A DNA stretch of 64,000 nucleotides from an uncultured Chloroflexia bacterium (GTDB taxonomy: Bacteria; Chloroflexota; Limnocylindria; Limnocylindrales; CSP1-4). Made by a program: the position numbers and the translations under genes. Under the pieces are notes generated by a model. The model was not told the DNA's origin. It ran no database searches and saw only the letters and a list, made by a program, of their open reading frames with translations. The stretch spans positions 384,001 through 448,000 of the forward strand of contig CAVRGP010000011.1 in the NCBI GenBank assembly GCA_963720755.1, written 5' to 3'. How positions within the stretch are numbered: position 1 is the first letter of the stretch; every line of letters begins with the position of its first letter. This document shows, piece after piece, positions 49,086-62,719 of this stretch.

Positions 49086-52000
49086 ATGGTCGCGCCCGTC
49101 CGAGTCTCCGACCCACTCGCGCCGTTCTCACCGGCGGTCCGCGATTGGTTCGCGTCGAGTTTCGAGGCACCGACCGAGGCGCAGGCCCGGGGCTGGGCGG
49201 CCATCTCGAGCGGCCGGCACACGCTCATCCACGCGCCGACCGGGAGTGGCAAGACCCTCGCCGCGTTCCTGTGGTGCCTGGACCGTCTTGCCACGGATCC
49301 CAGTCCGACGCCGACGCGAGAGCATCCGGGGGCCGTCCGGGTCCTGTACGTCTCGCCGCTCAAGGCGCTGACCTACGACATCGAGCGCAACCTCAGGGCG
49401 CCGCTGACCGGGATCGCCCACGCCGCGGCACGCCTCGGCGAAGTCCCACCGGCCATTTCCGTCGCCAGCCGGACCGGCGACACCCCGACCGAGGAGCGGC
49501 GTCAGATCGCCCGGCGTCCGCCGGACATCCTGATCACGACGCCCGAGTCGCTCTACCTGATGCTGACCAGTGCGGCCCGAGAGGTGCTCCGTGCCGTCGA
49601 GTACGTCATCGTCGATGAAGTCCACGCCATCGCCGGATCCAAGCGAGGCGCCCATCTCGCCCTGAGTCTCGAGCGGCTCGATGCGTTGCGCCCCGAGGGC
49701 CGCTCGCCGATCCAGCGGATCGGGCTGTCCGCAACCCAGCGCCCGCTCGACACCATCGCCCGGTTCCTCGGCGGGCTCGGGCCGGACCGGGAGGTGGAGA
49801 TCGTCGATGCGGGCTCGCGCAAGCCATTGGACCTCCAGGTCATCGTCCCGGTGGACGACATGTCGGCGATGGGCGAGGTCCTGCCGCCCGACGAGCGACC
49901 CGGTGGGCCGGCCACCGGCCCGGACGCGCGGACCAGCATCTGGCCGGCCATCCACCCGCGGATCCTCGAGCTCATCCGGGCGCATCGCAGCACGATCGTG
50001 TTCACCAACAGCCGGCGCCTGTCCGAGCGGCTCGCCCAGCGACTCAACGAGCTGGCCGGTGAGGAACTCGTGCGAGCCCACCATGGGAGTGTCGCCAGGG
50101 AGCAGCGGCTGGAGATCGAGGAGGGCCTCAAGGCCGGACGCCTGCCGGCGATCGTCGCGACCTCCAGCCTCGAGCTCGGGATCGACATGGGCGCGGTGGA
50201 CCTGGTCATCCAGGTGGAAAGTCCGACGAGCGTCGCCCGCGGGCTCCAGCGCGTGGGTCGTGCCGGCCACCAGGTCGGGGCGCCCAGCAAGGGCGTGATC
50301 TTCCCGAAGTACCGGGGTGACCTGCTCGAGTGCGCGATCGTGACCCGTCGGATGCACGAAGGCGCCATCGAATCCACCCAGCTGCCGCGCAACCCGCTCG
50401 ACGTCCTCGCCCAGCAGCTCGTGGCGATGACCGTCATGGACAGCTGGTCGGTCGACGACCTGCTCGCTTGCGTCAGCCGGGCGGCGCCATACGAGACCTT
50501 GACGCGCGAGGTCCTGGAAGGTGTGCTCGGCATGCTCGCCGGCGCCTATCCGTCCGATGAATTCGCCGAGTTGAAGCCGCGGATCGTCTGGGATCGGGTG
50601 ACGGACCGCGTCGAGGGTCGGCGCGATGCCCGCGTCGTCGCCGTCACCAGTGGGGGCACGATCCCGGATCGTGGGCTGTTCGGCGTGTTCATGGTCGGCG
50701 AGGCGGGTACGCCCGGGCGACGCGTCGGCGAGCTGGATGAGGAGATGGTCTACGAGCTGCGGGTCGGGATGCATGGTGATGTCATCGTCCTGGGGGCCAG
50801 CAGCTGGCGAGTCGAGGAGATCGGCCGCGACCGGGTCACCGTCAGCCCCGCCCCGGGCGTCCCCGGCAAGTTGCCGTTCTGGCACGGCGATGCCGTCGGG
50901 CGGCCGATCGAACTGGGACGAGCGATGGGCGCCTTCGTCCGGGAGCTCGAGGCGGACCTCGGACGCGGCGTGACGGGTCGCCAAGCCGCCACCGACCGCC
51001 TCCGAGAGTCGCATGACCTGGATGAGCGAGCGGCCGACAACCTGCTGGCCTACCTCGAGGACGAACGCGCCGTCACGAGCGTGCTGCCGACCGACCGGCG
51101 GATCGTCGTGGAACGGTTCCGCGACGAGCTCGGGGACTGGCGGCTGTGCCTGCTGACGCCGTTCGGCGGACGCGTCCACGCGCCGTGGGCCCTGGCCCTG
51201 GAGGCGCGGATCGGGGAACGGCTCGGGCTGGAGGTCCAGACCATCTGGTCCGACGATGGGATCGCGATCCGTCTGCCGGAAGGGGACGCGCCGCTCGATG
51301 GCATCGAAGCGCTGCTGTTCCCCGACGCCGGCGAGATCGAGGACCTGGTCGTCGGCCGCCTGGCCACCTCCGCCCTGTTCGCCAGCCGGTTCCGGGAGAA
51401 CGCCGGCCGCGCTCTCCTGCTCCCGAGGCGACGGCCGGGGACGCGCACGCCGCTCTGGCAGCAACGCCAGCGTGCGGCCGATCTGCTCGCGGTCGCGTCC
51501 CGCTACGGCTCGTTCCCGATCCTGGTCGAGACCTATCGTGAGTGCCTGTCCGACGTCTTCGACTTGCCCGCACTGCGGGAGATCATGGCCGGCGTCGCCA
51601 GCCGGGAGATCGCCGTGCACGCGATCGAGACGGCCTCGGCGTCGCCCTTCGCATCGAGCCTCATGTTCGACTATGTCGCCGCCTACATGTACGACGGCGA
51701 CACGCCGCTGGCCGAGCGTCGCGCGGGCGCCCTGACGCTCGATCGAGATCTGCTCCGCGAGCTGCTCGGGCAAGAGGAGCTGCGCGAGCTGATCGATCCG
51801 GACGCGCTGGCCGACCTCGAGCTGTCGCTCCAGGCGTTGATCGACGAGCGGCGGGCGGCGACGATCGATGGCGTCCACGACCTGCTTCGACGGCTCGGCG
51901 ACCTGTCTTCGCCGGAGATCGCCGCCCGCGTCGAAGGCGGCGCGGAGGTGGCCGACGCGTGGCTCGACGAACTGGCTTCTGCACGGCGGATCGTCCGCAC

Positions 52001-53675
52001 CCGGATCGCGGGCGAGGACCGCTGGATCGCGGTCGAGGATGTCGCCCGCTTTCGGGACGGGGTCGGGATCGCCCCGCCGGTCGGCATCCCGGCGGCGTTC
52101 CTCGCTCCGGCGGTCGGCGCCCTCGATGGACTGTTGGCCAGATATGCGCGCACCCACGGCCCGTTCCTCACGCCCGACCCGAGCGGGCGCTGGGGCCTGC
52201 CGGGCGGGGTGGTCGGCGACGCGCTGGGCCGCCTGGAGGCGTCGGGGTCGCTGCTTCGTGGCGAGTTCCGTCCCGGAGGTGCGGAACGCGAATGGTGTGA
52301 TCCGGAGGTGCTTCGCCTGCTCCGGCGTCGCTCCCTGGCGCGACTCAGGCGCGAAGTCGAGCCGGTCGATCCGGCGGCACTCGCACGCTTCCTCCCCGAG
52401 TGGCAGGGGGTCGCTCCGGTCGGCCCGGAACGCGCGGTCCTCCGCGGGACCGCGGCTCTCGAACGCCTGGCCGAGGTCGTCGATCGACTGGCCGGGCTGC
52501 CGATCCCGGCGTCGGTCCTCGAGCGCGATGTCCTTCCCGCACGGATCCCCGGCTATCAGCCGCGACTGCTCGACGAGTTGGGTGCCCTCGGTGAGGTTGC
52601 CTGGGTAGGGCGGGGGAGTCTCGGCCGCGACGACGGGCGGATCGTGTTGGTCCGGCCGGGTCGGGAGATCCTCCGGCCGACCGGCCTGCCAGATGGGGTC
52701 GAGTCTCCCTCGGGGGTACGCCACGTGGCCATCCGCGAGCATCTCGCCGAGCGCGGTGCCTCGTTCTATCGAGAGCTGTTCGCTGCGGCGGGCGGCCATT
52801 CGGACCGCGAGGTGCTCGATGCCCTGTGGGACCTGGTCTGGGCCGGCGAAGTCACCAACGACACGTTCGCTCCGCTGCGCGCCTTGCGCTGGAAGCGAGC
52901 GGGCAGTCGTGGGTCGCCCCGCGGCCACGGTCGTCCCGGTCGACTCACGGCCCTTGGGCCACCGGAAGCAGCCGGGCGCTGGTCCCTGGTGACGGCGGCC
53001 CAGGCGACCGTCGGCGCAAGCAGAGTCCCGGCGGGCGGTCCGACCGAGCGCCTGCATGCCCAGAGCCTGGAACTCCTGGAGCGCTACGGGATCCTCACCC
53101 GCGACGCGGTCGCAAGCGAGGGGATCGTCGGCGGATTCGCCGCCGTCTATCCGGTCCTGCGGGCGATGGAGGACGCCGGGCGCATCCGCCGCGGTTACTT
53201 CGTCGATGGGCTCGGCGCCGCGCAGTTCGCCCTGGCCGGAGCGCTCGACCGGCTGCGAGCCGTGCGCGAGCCGGCGGACCCGACGGGGTCGGGTCAGGTC
53301 CATCTGCTGGCCGCCGCCGATCCTGCCAATCCCTATGGGGTCGCCCTGGCGTGGCCGCGCCGGGGCGAGGCGGACCGGCGTCCACTCCAGCGTGCGGCAG
53401 GCGCCTACGTCGTCCTCGTGGACGGCGTCGCGACGCTCTATCTCGAACGGGGAGGGGCGACGCTCCAGACCCTGCCCGCCGCCGACGAGCCCGCCACGGC
53501 GTCCGCGGCGGCAGGCGGACTCGGAGCGCTCGTCGCGGACGGACGGTTTCGCGACCTGGTGATCCGAAAGGTGGATGGCGACGACGTCGCGGCATCGCCC
53601 TTCCGCCCGCGGCTGCTCGATGCCGGATTCGTGGCCGGCTATCGCGGTCTCGTGTTCCGGACGGGCCGCGGCTGA
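49086..53675 (+). CDS. lhr: Lhr helicase, long form with C-terminal winged-helix domain
   Basis: APTGSGKT, SPLKAL, TTPESL, DEVH, SATQRP, HHGS, ELGIDMG, QRVGRAGH, SGGTIPDRG, AADPANPYG. Confidence 0.95.
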   Translation: MVAPVRVSDPLAPFSPAVRDWFASSFEAPTEAQARGWAAISSGRHTLIHAPTGSGKTLAAFLWCLDRLATDPSPTPTREHPGAVRVLYVSPLKALTYDIERNLRAPLTGIAHAAARLGEVPPAISVASRTGDTPTEERRQIARRPPDILITTPESLYLMLTSAAREVLRAVEYVIVDEVHAIAGSKRGAHLALSLERLDALRPEGRSPIQRIGLSATQRPLDTIARFLGGLGPDREVEIVDAGSRKPLDLQVIVPVDDMSAMGEVLPPDERPGGPATGPDARTSIWPAIHPRILELIRAHRSTIVFTNSRRLSERLAQRLNELAGEELVRAHHGSVAREQRLEIEEGLKAGRLPAIVATSSLELGIDMGAVDLVIQVESPTSVARGLQRVGRAGHQVGAPSKGVIFPKYRGDLLECAIVTRRMHEGAIESTQLPRNPLDVLAQQLVAMTVMDSWSVDDLLACVSRAAPYETLTREVLEGVLGMLAGAYPSDEFAELKPRIVWDRVTDRVEGRRDARVVAVTSGGTIPDRGLFGVFMVGEAGTPGRRVGELDEEMVYELRVGMHGDVIVLGASSWRVEEIGRDRVTVSPAPGVPGKLPFWHGDAVGRPIELGRAMGAFVRELEADLGRGVTGRQAATDRLRESHDLDERAADNLLAYLEDERAVTSVLPTDRRIVVERFRDELGDWRLCLLTPFGGRVHAPWALALEARIGERLGLEVQTIWSDDGIAIRLPEGDAPLDGIEALLFPDAGEIEDLVVGRLATSALFASRFRENAGRALLLPRRRPGTRTPLWQQRQRAADLLAVASRYGSFPILVETYRECLSDVFDLPALREIMAGVASREIAVHAIETASASPFASSLMFDYVAAYMYDGDTPLAERRAGALTLDRDLLRELLGQEELRELIDPDALADLELSLQALIDERRAATIDGVHDLLRRLGDLSSPEIAARVEGGAEVADAWLDELASARRIVRTRIAGEDRWIAVEDVARFRDGVGIAPPVGIPAAFLAPAVGALDGLLARYARTHGPFLTPDPSGRWGLPGGVVGDALGRLEASGSLLRGEFRPGGAEREWCDPEVLRLLRRRSLARLRREVEPVDPAALARFLPEWQGVAPVGPERAVLRGTAALERLAEVVDRLAGLPIPASVLERDVLPARIPGYQPRLLDELGALGEVAWVGRGSLGRDDGRIVLVRPGREILRPTGLPDGVESPSGVRHVAIREHLAERGASFYRELFAAAGGHSDREVLDALWDLVWAGEVTNDTFAPLRALRWKRAGSRGSPRGHGRPGRLTALGPPEAAGRWSLVTAAQATVGASRVPAGGPTERLHAQSLELLERYGILTRDAVASEGIVGGFAAVYPVLRAMEDAGRIRRGYFVDGLGAAQFALAGALDRLRAVREPADPTGSGQVHLLAAADPANPYGVALAWPRRGEADRRPLQRAAGAYVVLVDGVATLYLERGGATLQTLPAADEPATASAAAGGLGALVADGRFRDLVIRKVDGDDVAASPFRPRLLDAGFVAGYRGLVFRTGRG

Positions 53676-53681
53676 TCCAGG

Positions 53682-54509
53682 ATGCCCGAGGGCGACACGC
53701 TCCACCGGACCGCAGCCGGGCTCCGACCGTATCTCGTGGGCCGGAAGGTCACGGCCGCGCGCACCGCCGGCCCCGGTCGGGTGCCCCAGGTCCACCGGAT
53801 CGTCGGTCGCGAGGTCATCGCGGTCGAAGCGATCGGCAAGAACCTGCTGATCCGGTTCGACGGCGGCCTGGAGATCCGGACGCATCTGCGGATGAACGGC
53901 TCGTGGCATCGGTACCGACCAGGCGAGCCCTGGCGACGGGCGCCTGCCCGGGCCCGCCTCGTGCTGGAGGTCCCCGGCGCCGTCGCCGTCTGCTTCGATG
54001 CGCCGGTCGTGGAGTTGCTCGAGCAACGAGCGGAGGGCCTCCACCCACCGCTCGGTGGCCTCGGTCCGGATCTCCTCGACCCGGCTGCCGACCTGGATGT
54101 CGTTGTTCGCCGGTTGCGGGATGCGTCGCGGGCCGATCTCGAGATCGGCGTGGCCCTGCTCGATCAACGTGCCACAGCGGGGATCGGCAACGTCTACAAG
54201 AGCGAGACCCTCTGGATCGAACGCGTCTCCCCGTTCGCGCCGGTCCGCGACCTCGACGACGGCACGCTCCGGCGGCTGGTCTCGACCGCGGCCCGGCTGC
54301 TCCGGGCGAACGTCTCGACTGGACACGGGCCGGAACGGATCACGACCGCAGGTGACCCCGGCGCCCCCGGTCCCCTGTATGTCTATCGTCGGACCGGGCG
54401 CCCGTGCCGGCGATGCCGGCGACCGATCTCGAGCCGGCGCCAGGGGACGGATCTGCCTCGGACCACGTACTGGTGTCCGACCTGTCAGGACCCGGGAGAG
54501 GCCGGCTGA
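53682..54509 (+). CDS. nei: Fpg/Nei-family DNA glycosylase (endonuclease VIII)
   Basis: MPEGD, GKNL, HLRMNGSW, LLDQR..AGIGNVYKSE, CRRC...WCPTCQ. Confidence 0.93.
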   Translation: MPEGDTLHRTAAGLRPYLVGRKVTAARTAGPGRVPQVHRIVGREVIAVEAIGKNLLIRFDGGLEIRTHLRMNGSWHRYRPGEPWRRAPARARLVLEVPGAVAVCFDAPVVELLEQRAEGLHPPLGGLGPDLLDPAADLDVVVRRLRDASRADLEIGVALLDQRATAGIGNVYKSETLWIERVSPFAPVRDLDDGTLRRLVSTAARLLRANVSTGHGPERITTAGDPGAPGPLYVYRRTGRPCRRCRRPISSRRQGTDLPRTTYWCPTCQDPGEAG

Positions 54510-55468
54510 TCGGGTGTCCGTCCGATGCCCCACCGGCTGGCCAGCCAGGCTCGTGCCCCCGCGAGCCAATGTCGCCATGTCGCCGGCCGGAAGATGTCCA
54601 GTGGATCTTCCTTGCGGTAGAACCACGGAACGGTCGCCCACAGGTACACGAGGAAATCGAGCCGCACCGGCCGCGCCCCGAACCCGAACAGCGCCTTCAT
54701 CTGGATGATCGTCAGGGGCAGGGTCAGGAGGCTGAGACCGACCGACACGACCAGCCAGAAGACCCCCCACTGTTTCGCTCGCCCGGGCAGGATCGGCCAG
54801 AACAGGACCGGGACCCATTTCATCCAGGTCGCAAGCGCCCAGAGCAACCCTCCAAGCCGGGGGCCGGTGAACTGGGCCGCCCAGAGCATCAAGGTGAGCT
54901 GCAGGTTGATGTTGCCGGTGTCCAGATTTGCGCCGAACGGGAAGGCCAGCGCGGCGACGATCAGCGCGGTCGTCAGCGGACGACGTCGATAGGCCCAGTG
55001 GATGGTCCACAGGAGCAGGAGGATCGTGCCGACCCGCCACACGAACCAGGCGACATCCCAGGGCAGCATCGCCCACGGGACGAACAGCGGCAGCATCCAG
55101 GGGGCATAGACGTACGGCAGGAATGGCCCGACCGGGTGGTAGGGGTCGCCGCCGTTGAGCCACAGCCGAACCCCGGCCCAGTAGGCCCGGGCATCGGCCC
55201 CGCCCGCGTCGCCCCGGGCGATCAGCCCGGACAGGACCAGCGCGAAGCTCAGGCTCAGGAGCACGATCGCCGCGACTCGCCGTGGATCGCGGAGGCGGAA
55301 GACCTCGCGGCGGAGGGCTCGTCGGAACACGCCCGCGCGTCGGCGTGTTCCGCGATCGATATGCTCGGACAGATCGACCACGATCCGACCACGGCCGCGG
55401 GCACTGCCTGGGACGGGCTGAAGGCCGTTTCCCGGCTGCAGGCCGTTCGGGGGCACGGACGCGCTCAT
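54485..55468 (-). CDS. GT87 (DUF2029) membrane glycosyltransferase
   Basis: DARAYW.G......GGDPY, YVYAP, GNIN, K..P; multiple TM helices. Confidence 0.78.
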   Translation of the reverse strand: MSASVPPNGLQPGNGLQPVPGSARGRGRIVVDLSEHIDRGTRRRAGVFRRALRREVFRLRDPRRVAAIVLLSLSFALVLSGLIARGDAGGADARAYWAGVRLWLNGGDPYHPVGPFLPYVYAPWMLPLFVPWAMLPWDVAWFVWRVGTILLLLWTIHWAYRRRPLTTALIVAALAFPFGANLDTGNINLQLTLMLWAAQFTGPRLGGLLWALATWMKWVPVLFWPILPGRAKQWGVFWLVVSVGLSLLTLPLTIIQMKALFGFGARPVRLDFLVYLWATVPWFYRKEDPLDIFRPATWRHWLAGARAWLASRWGIGRTPDQPASPGS

Positions 55469-55526
55469 GGCACCGGCATTCTCGCATGCGTGGTCGCCCC
55501 GGTCGCCCCGGTATACTCCGCCGGAC

Positions 55527-56363
55527 ATGGCCGATGGAACCGTCATCATCATCGGCGGCGCCGAGGACAAGGTTCGCGACCGCGTCATCCTGAGCCGATT
55601 CGTCGAGCTTGCAGGTGGCGAGAAGGCCACGATCGCCGTCATCAGCACCGCCTCATCTCTCGGGCTCGAAGCCGGGGAGCGGTACCGCGCGGTCTTTGGT
55701 GAGCTCGGCGTGAAGCACGTGCGGCCGCTCCATGCGGTGACCCGTCCACAGGCCAACGACGAGGCGGCCGTGAGCGCCGTCCGCGATGCGACCGGGGTCT
55801 TCCTGACCGGTGGGAACCAGCTGCGGCTGTCATCCACGCTCGGCGGCACCCGCCTGGCCGAGGCTGTCCTGGACCGGTTCCAGAACGGTGCGGTGGTGGC
55901 CGGCACATCGGCGGGCGCATCGGCGATGTCCAGCCACATGATCGCGTTCGGCGCCTCCGGGGCGACCCCGAAGCACCGGATGGCCCAGATCGCAGCGGGA
56001 CTGGGCGTCCTGCCCGGCGTCATCGTCGACCAGCATTTCCAGCAACGCAACCGGCTCGGTCGGCTGCTCAGCCTGATCGCCCAGAACCCCAGCCTGCTCG
56101 GCCTCGGGGTCGATGAGGACACTGCCGGGGTCGTCGGCCCGGATCACATCATGGACGTCATCGGGCGCGGCTCGATCACGGTGGTCGATGGTTCCCACTC
56201 GGAGACCGATGCCTGGGAGGTCCATGGGCACCGGCCACTCATGATCAGCGGTGTCGTGCTCCACTCGTTGCCTGCCGGCTACCGCTTCGACCTTCGCCAT
56301 CGGGAGCGCGTCGCCACCCCAGCGCTGCATGCACTGTCGGGCGGCGAGGCCGCCTCGAGCTAG
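55527..56363 (+). CDS. cphB: cyanophycinase
   Basis: [43 protein letters not shown]. Confidence 0.95.
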   Translation: MADGTVIIIGGAEDKVRDRVILSRFVELAGGEKATIAVISTASSLGLEAGERYRAVFGELGVKHVRPLHAVTRPQANDEAAVSAVRDATGVFLTGGNQLRLSSTLGGTRLAEAVLDRFQNGAVVAGTSAGASAMSSHMIAFGASGATPKHRMAQIAAGLGVLPGVIVDQHFQQRNRLGRLLSLIAQNPSLLGLGVDEDTAGVVGPDHIMDVIGRGSITVVDGSHSETDAWEVHGHRPLMISGVVLHSLPAGYRFDLRHRERVATPALHALSGGEAASS

Positions 56364-56398
56364 CCCACGGCGGGACCGCCGATAGATGGAGGGAACTC

Positions 56399-59257
56399 GT
56401 GGCTGACACCGTGGCTGGCTCCCCATCCGCTCCCCGCAAGAAGCGGGCCAGTCGGGCCAAGGCCACGCCGCCGTCTGGTCCGGCGCCCACCTTGCGGATC
56501 CTCGAGACGCGCGTGCTGCGCGGCCCGAATTACTGGGCTCGCGAGCCGGTCATCCGTCTCCTGCTCGATCTTGGTGTCCTCGAGGCGTACCCGTCGAACC
56601 TCCTGCCGGACTTCGCGGATGCGCTCGTCGCGCTCCTGCCGACGCTCGAGGACCACGCCTGCTCGCTCGGCCGGCGCGGCGGTTTCGTCACGCGGCTTCG
56701 CGACGGGACCTGGGTCGGCCACATCGCGGAGCACGTCGCCCTGGAGTTCCAGAACCTCGCCGGGACCGATGTCCGGCACGGGAAGACGCGGGCGGCCGGG
56801 CCGGTCGGCCAGTACAACTGCATCTACGAATATCGCGAGGAGGCGGTCGGCCTCGAGGCCGGCCGGATGGCGGTGGCGCTCGTCAATCACCTCGTCGCCC
56901 CCGACGACCCATCGGTCTTCTTCGACTTCGCGCCGGAGATGGAGCGACTGATCCGGCTCGCCGAGCGGCAGGCATTCGGGCCATCGACCCAGGCCCTGAT
57001 CGATGAGGCGGTCAGCCGCGACATCCCGTTCTTCCGGCTGGATCGCCACTCCCTCGTCCAGTTCGGCCACGGTGTTCATCAGCAGCGGATCCGGGCGACG
57101 ATGACCTCGCTCACCTCGGCCATCGGGGTCGATGTGGCGTCGGACAAGAGCCTGACCAATCGCCTCCTCGACTCGGCCGGCTTGCCCGTGCCCAGAGCGG
57201 ATGTGGTGGATACGGAGGAAGCCGCGGTCGCCGTGGCGCGGCGGCTTGGCTTCCCATGCGTCCTGAAGCCGCTCGACGGCAACCACGGCCGCGGCGTCCA
57301 CCTCGATCTGCAGTCCGACGATGAGGTCCGCGCCGCCTTCCACGGAGCGCTCGCCCAGAGCCGGAGCGGCGACGTGGTCGTGGAAACGTACGTGGCCGGC
57401 AACGACTACCGCTGCCTGGTCATCGGAGGCAAAGTGGCGGCGATCGCCGAACGTGTCCCGGCGTCGGTCGTCGGGAACGGTGAGCACTCCATCCGAGCCC
57501 TCGTGGACATCGCCAACAGCGACCCGCGGCGGGGGATCGGCCATGAGAAGGTCTTGACCCGGATCAACGTCGACGAGGCGGCCGAGGAGCTGGTCCGTGG
57601 CCAGGGCTTCGAGCTGGATGACACCCTGCCGGATGGCGTCAGGGTCAAGCTGGCCCTGACCGGCAACATGTCGACCGGCGGGACGTCGATCGACCGGACC
57701 ATCGAGGCACATCCCGACAACGTCGAGATCGCCGAGACCGCGGCTCGGATCGTCGGGCTCGACGTGGCCGGCATCGACTTCATCTGTCCCGACATCGCCA
57801 CGCCCGTGCGGGAGACGGGTGGCGCGATCGTCGAAGTCAACGCGGCGCCCGGATTCCGGATGCACACGCACCCGACCGAAGGCGAGCCGCAATACGTCGC
57901 CCGGCCGGTCATCGACTCGCTCTTCCCGTCGGGCTCGTCGGCCCGGATCCCGATCATCGCGGTGACCGGCACCAACGGCAAGACGACGACCGTCCGGATG
58001 ATCGCCCACATCCTCAAGCTGATGGGTCGCCGGGTCGGGATGACGTCGACCGACGGCATCGTGGTCGACGGACGGCTCATCAAGAAGGGCGACATGTCCG
58101 GACCGAAGTCGGCCCAGATGGTGCTCCAGAACCCGACCGTCGATACGGCGGTCTTCGAGGTCGCCCGTGGCGGCATCCTGCGCGAGGGGCTCGGATACGA
58201 CCGCAACGACGTCGCGGTCGTGACCAACGTCACCGGCGACCACCTGGGCCTCGGTGGCATCGATTCGATCGGTCAGTTGGCGAATGTCAAGGGTGTCGTC
58301 GTGGAGGCCGTCCCTCGGTCCGGGACGGCGGTCCTCAACGCGGACGACAACCACGTTTACCGGATGGGCCGGCACTGCGCCGGCCGGGTGGTCCTGTTCA
58401 GCATGGCCACGGCCAAGGGCGAGGATGGCTACGACCGGGTGGACGGCCACACGTCGCGTGGCGGCGCCGCATTCCGGGTCGAAGCCTCCGACGAAGGTGA
58501 GCTCATCGTGCTTCGCCTCGGCTCCCGGACGATGCCGGTCCTGTACACCCACCTCATCCCGGCGACCTTCGGCGGCCGGGCCCGGATGAATGTGGCCAAT
58601 GCCCTGGCCGCCGCCGCGGCCGCCTGGGCGGCTGGAGCTCATCTCCACGATATCCGCCAGGGCCTGCGGACCTTCTCGACGTCGTTCTTCCAGGCGCCCG
58701 GGCGCCTGAACCTCGTCGACGTCGGCGGCGTGCGGGTCGTGATCGACTACTGCCACAACGTGGACGGGATGCGCCAGCTGGCCGACTTCGTGAGCCGGAT
58801 GATGGTCGACGCACCAACGAAGTCCGGGCGGATCGGCGCAGCCGCGACGGCGTCGCGATCCGGCCGAGCCATCGGGGTCATCGGGATCCCGGGCGACCGG
58901 CGCGACGACGACCAGCGGCAGTACGGGGCGATCGCCGCCAGCGCGTTCGACGAGATCATCGTGCGCGAAGACAAGAACCTGCGCGGCCGCACACCCGGCG
59001 AGACTGCCGTCAATGTCATCGACGGCGTTCGCGAGGCGAAGGCCGATGGGTCGGCGCGGGTCGGCCGGGCCGACAAGGTGCTCGACGAGATGACCGCCGT
59101 CCGGGCGGCCCTGCGCCGGGCGATCCCGGGCGACCTCGTCGTGTGCTGCGTCGACGATGCGGTCGGGGTGTACCGGGAGGCCATGGCCGCGGCCGGGTCG
59201 ACCGGGGGCGGATCCGCGTTCGCCGATCCCGGTGAACTCGAAGCACCGGAAGGATAA
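56399..59257 (+). CDS. cphA: cyanophycin synthetase CphA1
   Basis: GPNYW, HACS.G..GGF..RL..GT..GHIAEH, FGPST, KPLDGNHGRGV, EVNAAPGFRMH, GTNGKTTT, EVARGG, PGRLN, DYCHN. Confidence 0.96.
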   Translation: MADTVAGSPSAPRKKRASRAKATPPSGPAPTLRILETRVLRGPNYWAREPVIRLLLDLGVLEAYPSNLLPDFADALVALLPTLEDHACSLGRRGGFVTRLRDGTWVGHIAEHVALEFQNLAGTDVRHGKTRAAGPVGQYNCIYEYREEAVGLEAGRMAVALVNHLVAPDDPSVFFDFAPEMERLIRLAERQAFGPSTQALIDEAVSRDIPFFRLDRHSLVQFGHGVHQQRIRATMTSLTSAIGVDVASDKSLTNRLLDSAGLPVPRADVVDTEEAAVAVARRLGFPCVLKPLDGNHGRGVHLDLQSDDEVRAAFHGALAQSRSGDVVVETYVAGNDYRCLVIGGKVAAIAERVPASVVGNGEHSIRALVDIANSDPRRGIGHEKVLTRINVDEAAEELVRGQGFELDDTLPDGVRVKLALTGNMSTGGTSIDRTIEAHPDNVEIAETAARIVGLDVAGIDFICPDIATPVRETGGAIVEVNAAPGFRMHTHPTEGEPQYVARPVIDSLFPSGSSARIPIIAVTGTNGKTTTVRMIAHILKLMGRRVGMTSTDGIVVDGRLIKKGDMSGPKSAQMVLQNPTVDTAVFEVARGGILREGLGYDRNDVAVVTNVTGDHLGLGGIDSIGQLANVKGVVVEAVPRSGTAVLNADDNHVYRMGRHCAGRVVLFSMATAKGEDGYDRVDGHTSRGGAAFRVEASDEGELIVLRLGSRTMPVLYTHLIPATFGGRARMNVANALAAAAAAWAAGAHLHDIRQGLRTFSTSFFQAPGRLNLVDVGGVRVVIDYCHNVDGMRQLADFVSRMMVDAPTKSGRIGAAATASRSGRAIGVIGIPGDRRDDDQRQYGAIAASAFDEIIVREDKNLRGRTPGETAVNVIDGVREAKADGSARVGRADKVLDEMTAVRAALRRAIPGDLVVCCVDDAVGVYREAMAAAGSTGGGSAFADPGELEAPEG

Positions 59258-59269
59258 GGATCGTCGCGA

Positions 59270-61033
59270 TCAGGCCCGGCGCGGCCGTCCCTGCATCCTC
59301 GGGACGAGGGTCGTGAGCTCGGTTGCCACATCGATCGGTCGTGCGCCCATCTCGGCCAGCAGCTCGAACACGCCGTCGCGATCCTCGTGGCACATGAGCA
59401 CGATCACCCTGGCGGCGTCCGGGCGGGCTCCGTGGATGCCACCGCCGGCTGCCCCGTTGAGTTCGGCCCGGAGCGCATCCGTCTCGCTGTCGTAGATCGG
59501 GACATCGGCCGGGTCGATCCCACCGGCGACGACCCCGACGAGGATCTCGCCCACCACCAATTCGGCGGTCCGTCCGCGGAGGTACCGAAGAGTCTGCTTG
59601 ATGGCCACCCGTTGCGCCCGCTCGGCCGCGATCCGGCCGATCCCACGGAGCGTGTCATCGGGGCGGTCGCCGGCCGTCCCGATGATCGCGGTGATCGGTG
59701 CGGCCCGACCCGCGGCGCCGCCGGCGATCCCCTCTGCGACGTCGAGGACGGCCCCGACCCCGGCCTCGTTGTGGGCGAAGTCGACGATCACGGTCCGGGC
59801 TCCGATCCGGTACAGGTTGAGCCGCCCCGGCGAGCGTTCCGCGCTCGGCGCGAAGTCGGCCAGCCCATCGCGGACCTCGGCGATCGAGGCCCCGAGGCCG
59901 CGGGCGCCACCGGCGGCGGCCATCGCGTTGGCGACGTTGTGGCGGGCCAACCCCCCGATCGTGATCGGAACCTCGACGACATCGACGATCGGCGTCTCCG
60001 ATGCCCCGTCGGCTTCGATGATCGTCCCGGCTCGGACCAGGTAGGCGCGACCGCCGCGCGCACGATGGCGCCGAACCACATCCGACCCGTCGCCATCCAT
60101 CGTGAACAGCGCGACCTTCGCCTTCACCCGGCGGGCGACCGCGGCGACCAGGGCGTCGTCGGCGTTGAGGACCACCCAGCCGTCGGCCCGGGTGATCCGG
60201 CAGACCGTCGACTTGACCTCGGCCAGCTCCGGTAGCGTGTGGATCCCCTGCAGGTCGAGGTGGTCGGACGAGACGTTGGTCAGGATGCTGGCGTCGTTCG
60301 ACTCATAGCCCATGCCGCGCAGGACGATCCCGCCGCGGGCCGTCTCCAGGACGGCCACGTCCACATCGCTCCGGGCCAGGATCTGGTGAGCGCCACCGGG
60401 CCCGGTCCAGTCCCCCTTGTCGACGATCCGCTCATCGACGAGTACCCCGTCCGAGGTGGTCGTTCCGACGTGGTGCCCGGCCACCAGGAGGATGTGCGTG
60501 ATCATCCGGGTCACGGTGCTCTTGCCGTTGGTGCCGGAGATCGAAACGACCGGGACCCGGCGCTCGGCATCGCGCACCCACTCGGGTGGGGTCGTGCGGG
60601 CCGCCACGATCCGCTCGGTCCACCGCGTGACGAGGCGCTCCTGGGCGCCGGTCAGCCGCGCCGTCTTCGACGGCGACACATCGCGCGCCGCCAGGGCAAG
60701 GGCCGCCTCGGTCAGCGTCATCGCCCGCTCGGCCCCGGACCATGGGAACGTGATGATCCAGTGACCCGGGTCCGATGAACGATGGACCGCCACCCCGCCC
60801 TTGCCCTCGTCGTGATCGACGCGCAGGCGACGGATCCAGGCCACGACGGCGGCCACGCCATCCGGTTGGTCACGAGCCCGGACGTCGGCCCCAAGGTGGA
60901 CGAGGGCGTGGCGCCCGGGGTCGCGCTGCCCATACCACGTTCGACGCCGGCCTGAAGCCAGCTCGACCTTGACCACCGGCTCGAGCCGGTAGACGTTCGG
61001 GCCCTCCAGCAGGCGGGTCTCGATGAGGCGCAC
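59270..61033 (-). CDS. CphA paralogue: divergent N domain plus Mur-ligase (M) domain, no ATP-grasp domain
   Basis: RLLEGPNVY..EPV N-terminus; SGTNGKSTV at about aa 165; ETARGG, TNV.SDHL, VLNADD, PGRLN, DFAHN, GDRPD, LRGR. Confidence 0.85.
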   Translation of the reverse strand: MRLIETRLLEGPNVYRLEPVVKVELASGRRRTWYGQRDPGRHALVHLGADVRARDQPDGVAAVVAWIRRLRVDHDEGKGGVAVHRSSDPGHWIITFPWSGAERAMTLTEAALALAARDVSPSKTARLTGAQERLVTRWTERIVAARTTPPEWVRDAERRVPVVSISGTNGKSTVTRMITHILLVAGHHVGTTTSDGVLVDERIVDKGDWTGPGGAHQILARSDVDVAVLETARGGIVLRGMGYESNDASILTNVSSDHLDLQGIHTLPELAEVKSTVCRITRADGWVVLNADDALVAAVARRVKAKVALFTMDGDGSDVVRRHRARGGRAYLVRAGTIIEADGASETPIVDVVEVPITIGGLARHNVANAMAAAGGARGLGASIAEVRDGLADFAPSAERSPGRLNLYRIGARTVIVDFAHNEAGVGAVLDVAEGIAGGAAGRAAPITAIIGTAGDRPDDTLRGIGRIAAERAQRVAIKQTLRYLRGRTAELVVGEILVGVVAGGIDPADVPIYDSETDALRAELNGAAGGGIHGARPDAARVIVLMCHEDRDGVFELLAEMGARPIDVATELTTLVPRMQGRPRRA

Positions 61034-61077
61034 GTTCCGGCGAGGATAGCAAGCCGCCGGAGGCTAGACTGGACGTC

Positions 61078-62325
61078 ATGACCATCAGCCCGACCGATGC
61101 CTCGATGCCGTCCCCGCTCGAGCTCGGTGCGCTGCAGGAAGCGATCGCCGCCGACCTGCCCGCATACCTGGCCGACCTGAAGGACCTCGTGAGCATCGAT
61201 TGCGGGAGCTACACCCCCGACGGCGTCGATGCCGTGGGCCGCTGGGTGCGTGCCTTCGTGACCGGTCTCGGAGCCGAGGTGGAGGTTCGGCCGGATCCTT
61301 CCGGACGGCTCGGCGCGACCCTGATCGCGACCTTCCATGGCCAAGCCGACGGACCGCGGGTCCTCCTGATCGGGCACATGGACACCGTCTTCGACCCGGG
61401 GACCGTCGCCGATCGACCATTCCGGATCAGCGATGGCGTGGCCTACGGCCCGGGGGTCACCGACATGAAATCGGGTTTGCTGGCCGGCCTGTACGCCATC
61501 AAGGCCATCATCGCGGACCGCGGCGGGCTGCCCTTCGAGCGACTCGTGTTCGTCGCCAACCCGGATGAGGAGATCGGGTCGCCGACCTCGACGCCGCACA
61601 TCCGGGAGGTGGCCGCCGACAGTGACGTCGCGCTCGTTCTCGAATGCGCGCGCGCCAACGGAGACATCGTGTCGTCCCGCAAGGGGATCCTGGATCTGCG
61701 TCTCGTGGTCGAAGGTCGGGCCGCCCACGCCGGGGTCGAACCCGAGAAGGGCCGGAGCGCGATCGTCGAGGCCGCTCGGATCGTCGGCGAGATCCATGCT
61801 CTCAACGGTCGCTGGCCGGACGTCACCCTCAACGTCGGTCTGATCACCGGCGGCACTCGTCCGAACGTCGTCGCCGAACGGTGCGCGCTCGAGGTCGACC
61901 TGCGGGCGACGTCACGAGCGGCGCTCGAAGCCGCCGAATCGGAGATCAGGCGGATCGCCGACTCCACGGTCGTGCCGGACACGACGGTCACGTTCGAGCC
62001 GATGGCCCGCTGGTGGCCGATGGAGAAGCTGGAGCGGAGTGGCCGGCTCGTGGAGCACGCCCAGGCCGTTGCCGCCGAACTCGGTTTCACGATCGCCGAT
62101 GCCGCCACCGGCGGGGCCTCCGATGCCAATACGACGGCAGGCATGGGGATCCCGAGCCTCGATGGCCTGGGTCCGATCGGCGGCAGCGACCATGCCCCGT
62201 CCGAATACCTCGAGATCGATTCCATCGTGCCCCGGACGACCCTTCTGGCGGGCCTGCTCCTGGCCATCGCCGGGGACCCCGACATCCCTGGTTGGCGTTC
62301 CGACCGTCCGGCCATCGGCGGCTGA
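61078..62325 (+). CDS. M20-family metallopeptidase (carboxypeptidase G2-like)
   Basis: IGHMDTVF, GPGVTDMKSG, DEEIGS, RKG, AHAG..PE.G, GGASDAN, DGLGP.G..H...E. Confidence 0.9.
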   Translation: MTISPTDASMPSPLELGALQEAIAADLPAYLADLKDLVSIDCGSYTPDGVDAVGRWVRAFVTGLGAEVEVRPDPSGRLGATLIATFHGQADGPRVLLIGHMDTVFDPGTVADRPFRISDGVAYGPGVTDMKSGLLAGLYAIKAIIADRGGLPFERLVFVANPDEEIGSPTSTPHIREVAADSDVALVLECARANGDIVSSRKGILDLRLVVEGRAAHAGVEPEKGRSAIVEAARIVGEIHALNGRWPDVTLNVGLITGGTRPNVVAERCALEVDLRATSRAALEAAESEIRRIADSTVVPDTTVTFEPMARWWPMEKLERSGRLVEHAQAVAAELGFTIADAATGGASDANTTAGMGIPSLDGLGPIGGSDHAPSEYLEIDSIVPRTTLLAGLLLAIAGDPDIPGWRSDRPAIGG

Positions 62326-62374
62326 TCGCGGGTCGCCGGTCGGTGCCGGCCCGATCGGTGCCCGACCCTCGGAC

Positions 62375-62719
62375 TCAGACCGGGATGGCGGCCAGCCCGG
62401 CGGCCCGGGCGACCGCGACGATCGCCACGGCGGCGACGAGGCCGAGCAGCAAGTTGCCCTTGCGAGCGACGATCGCCAGGCAGGCGAAGACGGCCACCCA
62501 TTCGATCCCGACATGGAAGGACGGGACAGCGTCGTCACCGACGACCACCATCACGCTGACCGCGGCCAGCGCCGACAGGACGGCCGGACCCACCAGCTGG
62601 AGGTAGTCGAACGCGATCTTCGGCAGGCGGTCGAGGCCGGGTGCGAGAAGGCCGAGCGCGCGGGTCGGGTAGGTGACCGCGAACATCAGGATCGCCAGCG
62701 GGACGAGGTCCGTGCTCAC
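62375..62719 (-). CDS. azlD: AzlD-family membrane protein
   Basis: VTYPTRA, LP....YL..VGPAVL.AL; overlaps azlC. Confidence 0.82.
   Translation of the reverse strand: MSTDLVPLAILMFAVTYPTRALGLLAPGLDRLPKIAFDYLQLVGPAVLSALAAVSVMVVVGDDAVPSFHVGIEWVAVFACLAIVARKGNLLLGLVAAVAIVAVARAAGLAAIPV

Follow-up and report, generated by a model that had tools for sequence, protein, structure and literature searches.

The cyanophycin locus considered here lies in a 64,000-nucleotide (nt) stretch of DNA from an uncultured Chloroflexia bacterium (contig CAVRGP010000011.1, positions 384,001 to 448,000), which is called the window and whose own numbering is used for all coordinates. In this window, the reverse-strand gene at nt 59270–61033 encoded a protein of 587 amino acids (aa), P0001, which was recognized from its open reading frame, Pfam and TIGR02068 searches, and BLASTP as a paralogue of the cyanophycin synthetase CphA that possessed the N-terminal (N) domain and the Mur ligase-like (M) domain of that enzyme and lacked its ATP-grasp (G) domain. 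The gene and its product, referred to as N-M after these two domains, are a real, conserved variant of cyanophycin synthetase. The start codon was GTG, and the same GTG was found in all 11 orthologues compared.

On the opposite strand, nt 56399–59257 (+) were occupied by cphA, encoding a full-length CphA1 of 952 aa with the N, G, and M domains and a Cx19HxxEH motif, as judged from TIGR02068 (1117.7 bits versus a cut-off of 850) and from Pfam, which detected the Cyanophycin_syn N domain, seven ATP-grasp-type families, and both Mur domains. Upstream of it, cphB (nt 55467–56363, +) encoded a cyanophycinase of the S51 peptidase type (TIGR02069, 265.2 bits versus a cut-off of 126.6; Pfam S51). The stop codons of cphA and the N-M gene converged on a spacer of 12 base pairs (bp; nt 59258–59269), which confirmed the tail-to-tail arrangement of the 587-aa gene with a full-length cphA that had been described in an earlier annotation made from the letters of the window (the sequence-only reading). 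The spacer was filled by the palindrome GATCGTCGCGATC (nt 59259–59271), a weak element with a 5-bp stem and the sole terminator-like element there; read-through of either gene would run antisense to the other. No sigma-70-like promoter was found by a promoter scan of nt 55000–62600.

Domain architecture of the N-M protein

Solely Mur_ligase_M (residues 165–375) and Mur_ligase_C (residues 403–526) were detected by Pfam in the N-M protein, with no ATP-grasp family at E <= 0.01 in the scan that found seven in the window CphA. The TIGR02068 model matched it at 373.8 bits over model positions 473–841 only and missed the cut-off of 850. In BLASTP, residues 159–504 aligned with residues 516–876 of the window CphA at 40% identity, and a second, short match joined residues 1–28 to CphA residues 32–59 (E 1e-4). 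The P-loop of the M domain began at residue 167, versus residue 524 in the window CphA. The motifs named by the sequence-only reading were all located in the translation, namely the CphA-like start RLLEGPNVY (residues 7–15), the early Mur P-loop ISGTNGKST (165–173, versus TGTNGKTT at 523–530 in CphA), and the M-domain motifs ETARGG (229–234), TNVSSDHL (252–259), PGRLN (402–406), and DFAHN (418–422); its two statements of absence, concerning the ATP-grasp domain and the hydrolytic site of the N domain, held as well, the Cx19HxxEH motif being present in the window CphA and not in the N-M protein.

Residues 1–150 (nt 60584–61033, -) constituted a homologue of the CphA1 N domain without this zinc site, as indicated by hhalign, alignments, and VIA-align. 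The Pfam model of the CphA N domain, PF18921, was not reached by the N-M protein. Comparison of profiles by hhalign, with 15 N-M N-terminal regions against 14 CphA1 N domains, gave a probability of 96.8% and an E-value of 2.8e-10 over 123 columns. The Cx19HxxEH columns were invariant in the 14 CphA1 N domains, including that of the window CphA, and no conserved counterpart was present among the 15 N-M N domains. In SuCphA1 this motif forms the primer-generating zinc peptidase site (H57, C59, H79, E82, and H83), according to the excerpts of PMC9262961 used here (this paper, PMC9427784, PMC10273328, and PMC11915815 are cited throughout for excerpts). It is present in 83% of CphA1 sequences (PMC9262961), and because only this share possesses it, the motif does not strictly define CphA1. 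Residues R7, L9, G11, P12, and N13 were conserved in at least 90% of the N-M N termini. This stretch corresponds to the hydrophobic loop of CphA1 (Y14, I17), which is in contact with the M domain (PMC9262961).

Two types of N-M proteins were distinguished. Members of the type A family comprise about 530–600 aa, start with R-x-L-x-G-P-N, have a CphA-type M domain directly after the N domain, carry an inserted Tyr before L-R-G-R, and possess no G domain; the window protein showed every one of these features in alignments, column counts, and tree groups. In type B, the N terminus reads D-S-R-R-L-T-G-P-N and about 180–190 aa lie ahead of the P-loop.

The M core (Mur_ligase_M, residues 165–375; nt 59909–60541, -) contained the P-loop G167–T173, E230, D257–H258, and K274, whereas the M lid (Mur_ligase_C, residues 403–526; nt 59456–59827, -) contained R404, H421, G455-D456-R457, and R486-G487-R488. 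Conservation was assessed by aligning 43 M domains of type A, 22 of type B, and 40 of CphA1, with residues mapped through a HMMER alignment to SuCphA1 and roles taken from PMC9427784 and PMC9262961. N169, K171, E230, D257, H258, K274, and R404 were invariant (100%) in each of these groups, and H421 was conserved in 97–100%. In the ATP-binding P-loop, GTNGKST (residues 167–173; nt 60515–60535, -), N169 and K171 mapped to N497 and K499 of TeCphA1, of which the former sandwiches the adenine ring and the latter contacts the ATP phosphates (PMC9427784, PMC9262961). S172, S194, and E230 matched CphA1 T500, T522, and E558, which chelate Mg2+; R404 and H421 matched R731 and H748, lid residues placed on the phosphates (PMC9427784, PMC9262961). 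The pair D257–H258 (nt 60260–60265, -) aligned with SuCphA1 D585–H586, which had been mutated to kill the M site (PMC9262961).

An AlphaFold model of the N-M protein, built from a 38-sequence alignment, had a mean pLDDT of 90.0 and a pTM of 0.91. CphA1 structures ranked first in Foldseek, with query-normalised TM scores of 0.72–0.75 and alignments of about 900 columns that skipped the G domain. VIA-align superposed model residues 1–563 on residues 1–877 of TeCphA1 (7wae_A) with Z 39.2 over 501 residues (root mean square deviation 2.8 A) and gave Z 41.7 over 507 aligned residues for 7txv_A (5.0 A), versus Z 25.7 for MurE, the best structure outside CphA, and about 25 for MurC and MurD. The N and M domains are therefore predicted to be arranged as in CphA1, superposing as one body with G skipped, a likeness to solved CphA1 that may partly reflect the learning of the predictor. 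The model also predicts retention of the groove in which CphA1 accommodates a cyanophycin analogue, between N domain and M core (PMC9427784).

Spread, age and linkage to cphA

Proteins related to N-M were abundant. Of 8000 candidates scored in a word-indexed search, at least 3905 proteins reached E <= 0.001; the best 120 of these 3905 matches were 566–622 aa in length, shared 80–100% identity, and possessed only the two Mur Pfam domains. An exhaustive search of representatives gave 7863 proteins at a threshold of E <= 0.001 and 1251 when it was set to E <= 1e-30; many were 530–590 aa long and aligned from residue 1–3 to about residue 530–565 with 34–43% identity. Among 37 representatives scanned with Pfam, no credible ATP-grasp domain was present in the proteins of 530–600 aa. 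The homologues are thus also devoid of this domain, and the deletion or misassembly confined to this locus that the sequence-only reading had considered is not what is seen.

Within the genus, the N-M gene was found in 22 of the 24 other species, 20 times in one piece; the two genomes in which it was not found were 69% and 59% complete. The ratio of nonsynonymous to synonymous substitutions (dN/dS), calculated against the window copy, was 0.13–0.19 for 10 genus orthologues and 0.28 for the more distant L015. The N-M gene is real, is under purifying selection, and did not arise by local deletion.

Some variation in length was noted. In a Terrabacter-like clade, P0183 (745 aa) possessed a TPR_5 domain at residues 622–740, and stop-to-stop frames of 761–766 aa were found for the N-M genes of L024 (2333-) and L033 (7902-10184), which suggests that the N-M protein of this clade is extended at its C terminus.

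When 117 M domains were placed on a tree (IQ-TREE, LG+G4, quick search, SH-aLRT), with the MurE of the same genome as outgroup, all CphA1 fell in a starred clade of 50 rows, together with a few proteins that lack G but have the standard PF18921 N domain; type B, a starred clade of 23 rows, was its sister, and 44 type A rows, including the window protein, were placed beyond a 99% branch. In a subset of 46 rows picked after this tree and analysed under LG+C20+F+G4, type A, type B, and CphA1 each occupied one side of a branch (97, 96, and 99%). In an approximately unbiased (AU) test on these 46 rows, forcing types A and B together raised the log-likelihood by 0.31 (p-AU 0.505), so that a single N-M clade was not rejected and the trees fix neither the root nor the order in which the three groups branched. 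Because its M domain forms a group apart from CphA1 on both trees, the N-M lineage is old, and the conclusion that the window protein is no recent derivative of the neighbouring CphA1 is robust. In the rooted trees CphA1 was sister to type B and nested among the N-M proteins; the N-M layout could be the older one, with CphA1 derived by insertion of an ATP-grasp domain, and this is proposed without claiming an ancestry for N-M. The CphA1 proteins encoded beside type A genes (window, L016, L017, L026, and L047) formed a clade of their own, which fits inheritance or transfer of the whole cluster.

Two kinds of unusual proteins were observed on the tree. P0207, P0219, P0238, P0252, and P0259 (599–657 aa), which combined the standard PF18921 N domain with the Mur domains and had no G domain, were scattered within the CphA1 clade; either they lost G recently and independently of one another, or their gene calls are broken. 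P0141 (972 aa, from a metagenome) consisted of a CphA1-type M domain (residues 8–389, no Tyr insertion), a type B N domain, and an M domain with the Tyr; its first half grouped with the CphA1 of L060 and L071 and its second half with type B. Unless it stems from a faulty gene call, this protein represents a natural fusion of CphA1 and N-M parts.

The window proteins were searched by tblastn against 94 fetched loci, among which 16 loci outside the genus had the N-M gene as the primary match. A full cphA was present in the flank of 12 of these 16, mostly together with cphB, and a 13th had a partial cphA at the end of the locus; the remaining three were L019, whose contig ends 7 bp past the gene, L078, a 3.1-kb contig, and L020. 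The carriers included Kribbella, Terrabacter, Nocardioides, other Actinomycetota, Chloroflexota, and a metagenome-assembled genome (MAG) of Sphaerobacteraceae. Linkage of such genes to cph genes was therefore seen in other genomes as well, across phyla. Type B genes were located on the same strand as, and directly downstream of, cphB-cphA in four Gammaproteobacteria (L055, L060, L071 of Luteimonas, and L077), Plesiocystis pacifica (L066), and a Planctomycetaceae MAG (L080), a set biased towards adjacency by L060, L066, L071, and L077, which had been fetched via their cphA.

Co-occurrence was surveyed in two groups of genomes, with gene types assigned by coordinates and open-frame length and, in Chloroflexota, by identity too. 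Among 301 Chloroflexota genomes at least 80% complete (matches at E <= 1e-40), 40 had a match, and 35 of these had two or more, representing N-M plus CphA1; one of the 40 (G330) had only an N-M fragment. According to the coordinates, 26 of the 35 pairs were on one contig within 3 kb, and two of the 35 genomes were too fragmented for linkage to be judged. In Propionibacteriales, the order of Kribbella, 63 of 121 genomes had both genes, none had a single one, and 58 had neither. Each of the 63 had exactly two matches, an N-M gene (query residues 1–558) and a CphA1-type gene, and in 61 the two genes shared a contig at a distance of 0.1 to about 8 kb and were in every case convergent, as read from the coordinates. 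Since these relatives are not independent, the counts do not amount to a statistical test, striking as the all-or-none pattern is.

In five Actinomycetota loci (L016, L021, L022, L033, and L047), the N-M gene followed two short-chain reductase genes, fabG-like and inhA-like, on the same strand, with a DUF3099 gene ahead of the two reductase genes in L021 and L033. The genes between N-M and cphA varied in the Actinomycetota loci and included those for a sigma factor, a Dyp peroxidase, a copper chaperone, and others; no further conserved partner besides cphA and cphB was found among 142 open frames of 7 loci. Two tandem cphA genes were present in the Betaproteobacteria-type loci L074, L076, L083, L084, L087–L089, and L092–L094, the M-domain match of the first stopping about halfway. 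We take these to be the known cphA’/cphA pair, which is not the N-M architecture.

Candidate function and neighbouring genes

The N-M protein is probably an active, stand-alone ATP-dependent amide ligase of the CphA lineage, belonging to type A and acting on cyanophycin-type substrates. This assignment is drawn from homology, conserved residues, and gene linkage, from which we also infer that cyanophycin is the substrate. The stand-alone side-chain ligase suggested by the sequence-only reading is the best-supported candidate function.

In the proposed reaction, Mg-ATP would be bound through the P-loop (N169, K171, and S172), S194, and E230, and the lid would close with R404 and H421. The group activated as an acyl phosphate would be a carboxylate of a cyanophycin-type substrate, most likely the free beta-carboxyl of Asp in a polymer or oligomer, and an amino acid would then be joined to it. 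The zinc-less N domain would pack on the M core via the GPN loop as in CphA1, forming a groove that holds the polymer. Having no G domain, the protein cannot lengthen a backbone, so that its substrates would have to be chains or fragments that the neighbouring CphA1 produces.

Several observations weigh against this assignment or against parts of it. The type A gene is convergent with cphA and not co-transcribed with it; at L020, no cphA was present within 3.4 kb upstream or 8 kb downstream; and in the seven genomes of Chloroflexota family f30, a 542-aa form was unlinked to cphA. Four of the 40 matching Chloroflexota genomes (G143, G278, G286, and G319) had cphA alone, showing that CphA1 does not need the N-M protein, and within the genus one copy had an internal TAG (G018) and two were split in two pieces (G022 and G023), so that the gene looks dispensable in some relatives. 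Differences were also observed in the presumed amino-acid pocket, the columns that are conserved in CphA1 but changed in the N-M family being clustered in a few places. In Y484-L-R486-G-R488 (nt 59570–59584, -), column counts show the Tyr directly before L-R486-G-R488 to be a single inserted residue characteristic of the N-M family: Tyr occupies this column in 93% of type A sequences and in 77% of those of type B, while 95% of CphA1 have a gap there. At a position three columns ahead of Tyr484 and, in CphA1, two residues ahead of R862, the Asp of CphA1 (D858; 77%, Glu in 12%) was replaced by K/T in type A and L/M in type B, and S571, conserved in 90% of CphA1, was replaced by Gly in 100% of type A (G214 in the window protein). 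The position of SuCphA1 E607, which touches polymer bound at the N-domain site (PMC9262961), was E in 70% of CphA1 but R/K in 71% of type A (R279 in the window protein). Because the pocket differs in this way from that of CphA1, the view that the N-M protein adds Arg to cyanophycin exactly as CphA1 does may be wrong.

The stretch with the Tyr insertion aligned with D-E-D-P-R-G-E of the genome’s own MurE. This is the motif region by which MurE recognizes the incoming diamino acid. Taken together, the residue changes hint that the incoming group, or the way of holding it, may differ from the Arg of CphA1. The domain charges also differed: in all six type A pairs compared (not independent, since two Kribbella and two Terrabacter genomes are among them), the net charge of the N domain was +3 to +10 in N-M versus -1 to -6 in the co-resident CphA1, and the net charges of the M domains followed the opposite trend.

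The same support for an active ligase linked to cph genes would be shared by a ligase of the cyanophycin pathway that handles small molecules, joining Asp and Arg into beta-Asp-Arg or supplying CphA1 with short primers or recycled oligomers. The first, primer-free steps of CphA1 are thought to be very slow (PMC9262961), and the N domain of N-M is without the primer-making peptidase site. We nevertheless regard this alternative as unlikely: the co-resident CphA keeps its Cx19HxxEH primer site, so that a separate primer maker is not obviously needed, and the groove retained in the model would fit a long substrate better than free Asp (PMC9427784).

An active Mur-type ligase for an unrelated substrate, such as a component of the cell envelope or another polyanion, would owe its linkage with cphBA to co-inheritance of a chromosomal block. 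The housekeeping-like reductase genes preceding it in the five Actinomycetota loci, the variable genes between N-M and cphA, the unlinked f30 copies, and the altered pocket and reversed domain charges would all fit such an enzyme. Set against them are the all-or-none co-occurrence in the 121 Propionibacteriales genomes (63/0/58), the adjacency to cphA kept across phyla in two orientations, the CphA-specific N domain and N-M arrangement, and the fact that the genome already has a MurE of its own (L003), which make this reading unlikely as well.

The sequence-only reading had also considered a hetero-oligomeric regulator of CphA1, that is, a non-catalytic partner that joins CphA1 oligomers and tunes polymer synthesis. 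The M domain, which N-M shares, is part of the CphA oligomer interfaces (PMC10273328, PMC9262961), and the strict co-occurrence with cphA would suit such a partner. This role is nonetheless disfavoured and we give it very little credence, since the catalytic and ATP-binding residues were 97–100% conserved in 65 family members, which a pure regulator would not need, and since the missing G domain is the one that helps to form the dimer interface of CphA2 (PMC10273328), and presumably that of CphA1 too. The convergent layout with its 12-bp spacer would also not favour co-expression. The tetramer contact W672 of SuCphA1 corresponds to S345, in a column that is variable in the N-M family and also within CphA1 itself (W 35%, R 30%) and is therefore uninformative. 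Finally, a decaying duplicate of cphA or an assembly artefact, which the three interrupted copies among the 22 of the genus might suggest, is refuted for practical purposes by the intact frame in the window and 19 other genus genomes, the low dN/dS of 0.13–0.19, the existence of hundreds of database proteins that match it in length and architecture, and an M domain that is only 40% identical to that of the neighbour and lies in a separate, old group of the tree.

Cyanophycin is a nitrogen store and a candidate feedstock for biopolymers. To our knowledge, its enzymology has been thought essentially complete with CphA1, CphA2, cyanophycinases, and dipeptidases. If the N-M protein is a side-chain-ligating half-synthetase, a step would be added to the pathway by a conserved enzyme whose gene accompanies cphA all-or-none in a large actinobacterial order. 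It is tentatively suggested that the N-M proteins constitute a third widespread class of cyanophycin enzymes, namely stand-alone side-chain ligases with an amino-acid specificity of their own; in soil Actinomycetota, Chloroflexota, and several further phyla, the cyanophycin made or re-charged would then have side chains not set by CphA1 alone. Such enzymes could explain variation in polymer composition in non-cyanobacteria, and they could be used as naturally occurring tools for attaching amino acids of choice to poly-Asp or cyanophycin.

On its other side, the N-M gene was divergent, over a 44-bp spacer, from an M20 metallopeptidase gene (nt 61078–62325, +) identified by Pfam and family models. 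The best model for its product was the glutamate carboxypeptidase NF004788 (288 bits, under the cut-off of 349). The divergent N-M/M20 pairing was present in 12 of the 12 loci of relatives that reach this side (L004–L015) and likewise in G049, G074, and G096, three genomes from a different family of the class, and was absent in G057 and G171. Because neither IaaA (PF01112) nor PF04952 was found in the own genome (93.6% complete), and IadA was not found above the cut-off (TIGR01975, best score 21 bits), the M20 enzyme could act as the beta-Asp-Arg dipeptidase that is otherwise missing. The peptidase already known, CphZ, belongs to the M14 type (PMC9974463).

Upstream of cphB, a gene for a large Lhr-type helicase (nt 49086–53675, +) encoded 1529 aa with DEAD, Helicase_C, DEAD_assoc, and four Lhr winged-helix domains. 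A GT87 glycosyltransferase frame (nt 54485–56122, -) ran into the start of cphB; because of this overlap the long frame is probably over-extended.

Relation to known enzyme classes

Members of the family are named “Mur ligase family protein” (NCBI) or, automatically, “cyanophycin synthetase” (JGI) in thousands of database entries. One relative was covered by DUF4938 (PF16292), a family that carries no described function and for which the one paper found concerns another subject, to judge from its title: the distant type B relative P0210, which has the same N-M layout, matched it at 102 bits over residues 4–273, whereas the window protein (no match at E <= 0.01) and 35 of the 37 relatives scanned were not reached, P0262 scoring 30.9 bits (cut-off 32) and P0259 only 16.3 bits. 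A Mur-domain phylogenomic study of 2025 placed CphA as an ATP-grasp–Mur fusion near MurE/F and lumped two divergent sequences with CphA (PMC11915815); its excerpted passages give no description of the N-M architecture. None was found either among the papers listed for cyanophycin synthetases, Mur ligases, and DUF4938, covered mostly as titles and abstract openings. The sequence-only reading had known of no description of this architecture, which agrees with these searches, except that DUF4938 covers one relative and the databases already hold members by the thousand.

With the Mur ligases MurC, MurD, MurE, MurF, and Mpl, the N-M protein shares the central and C-terminal fold and the ATP chemistry (Z of about 23–26 in Foldseek and VIA-align comparisons). 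Its N domain is, unlike theirs, of the CphA type and not UDP-MurNAc-binding. The cut-offs of all Mur families were missed, the best MurE model giving 103.7 bits versus 373, and the MurE outgroup was located on a long branch outside the family. The CapB/PgsB model TIGR04012 scored 25.5 bits (cut-off 222.7) and matched the P-loop region only. A grouping with MurC-F or CapB, which had been considered beforehand, is thus not observed; the protein groups with the M domains of CphA and is linked to cph genes.

The closest likeness is to CphA1 (TIGR02068; structures 7LG5, 7LGJ, 7LGQ, 7TXV, and 7WAE), with which the N-M protein shares a homologous N domain, a complete M domain, in the model the same arrangement of the two, and a position beside cphB-cphA. 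It differs from CphA1 in having no G domain, and hence no backbone extension, in lacking Cx19HxxEH, in the inserted Tyr and the lost acidic residue of the presumed pocket, and in an M domain that falls in a separate group of the tree and scores 373.8 bits where 850 are required.

Like CphA2, the N-M protein is a reduced member of the same lineage with a non-catalytic N domain and a single active site (PMC10273328). It belongs to neither characterized CphA class, as it fails the tests that define CphA1 and those that define CphA2. CphA2 is composed of N, G, and a truncated, inactive M domain (PMC10273328), whereas the N-M protein possesses no G domain and a full M domain with its lid that, from its conserved residues, is apparently active. 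The description of the protein as the mirror image of CphA2, with N and a full M but no G, is thus apt.

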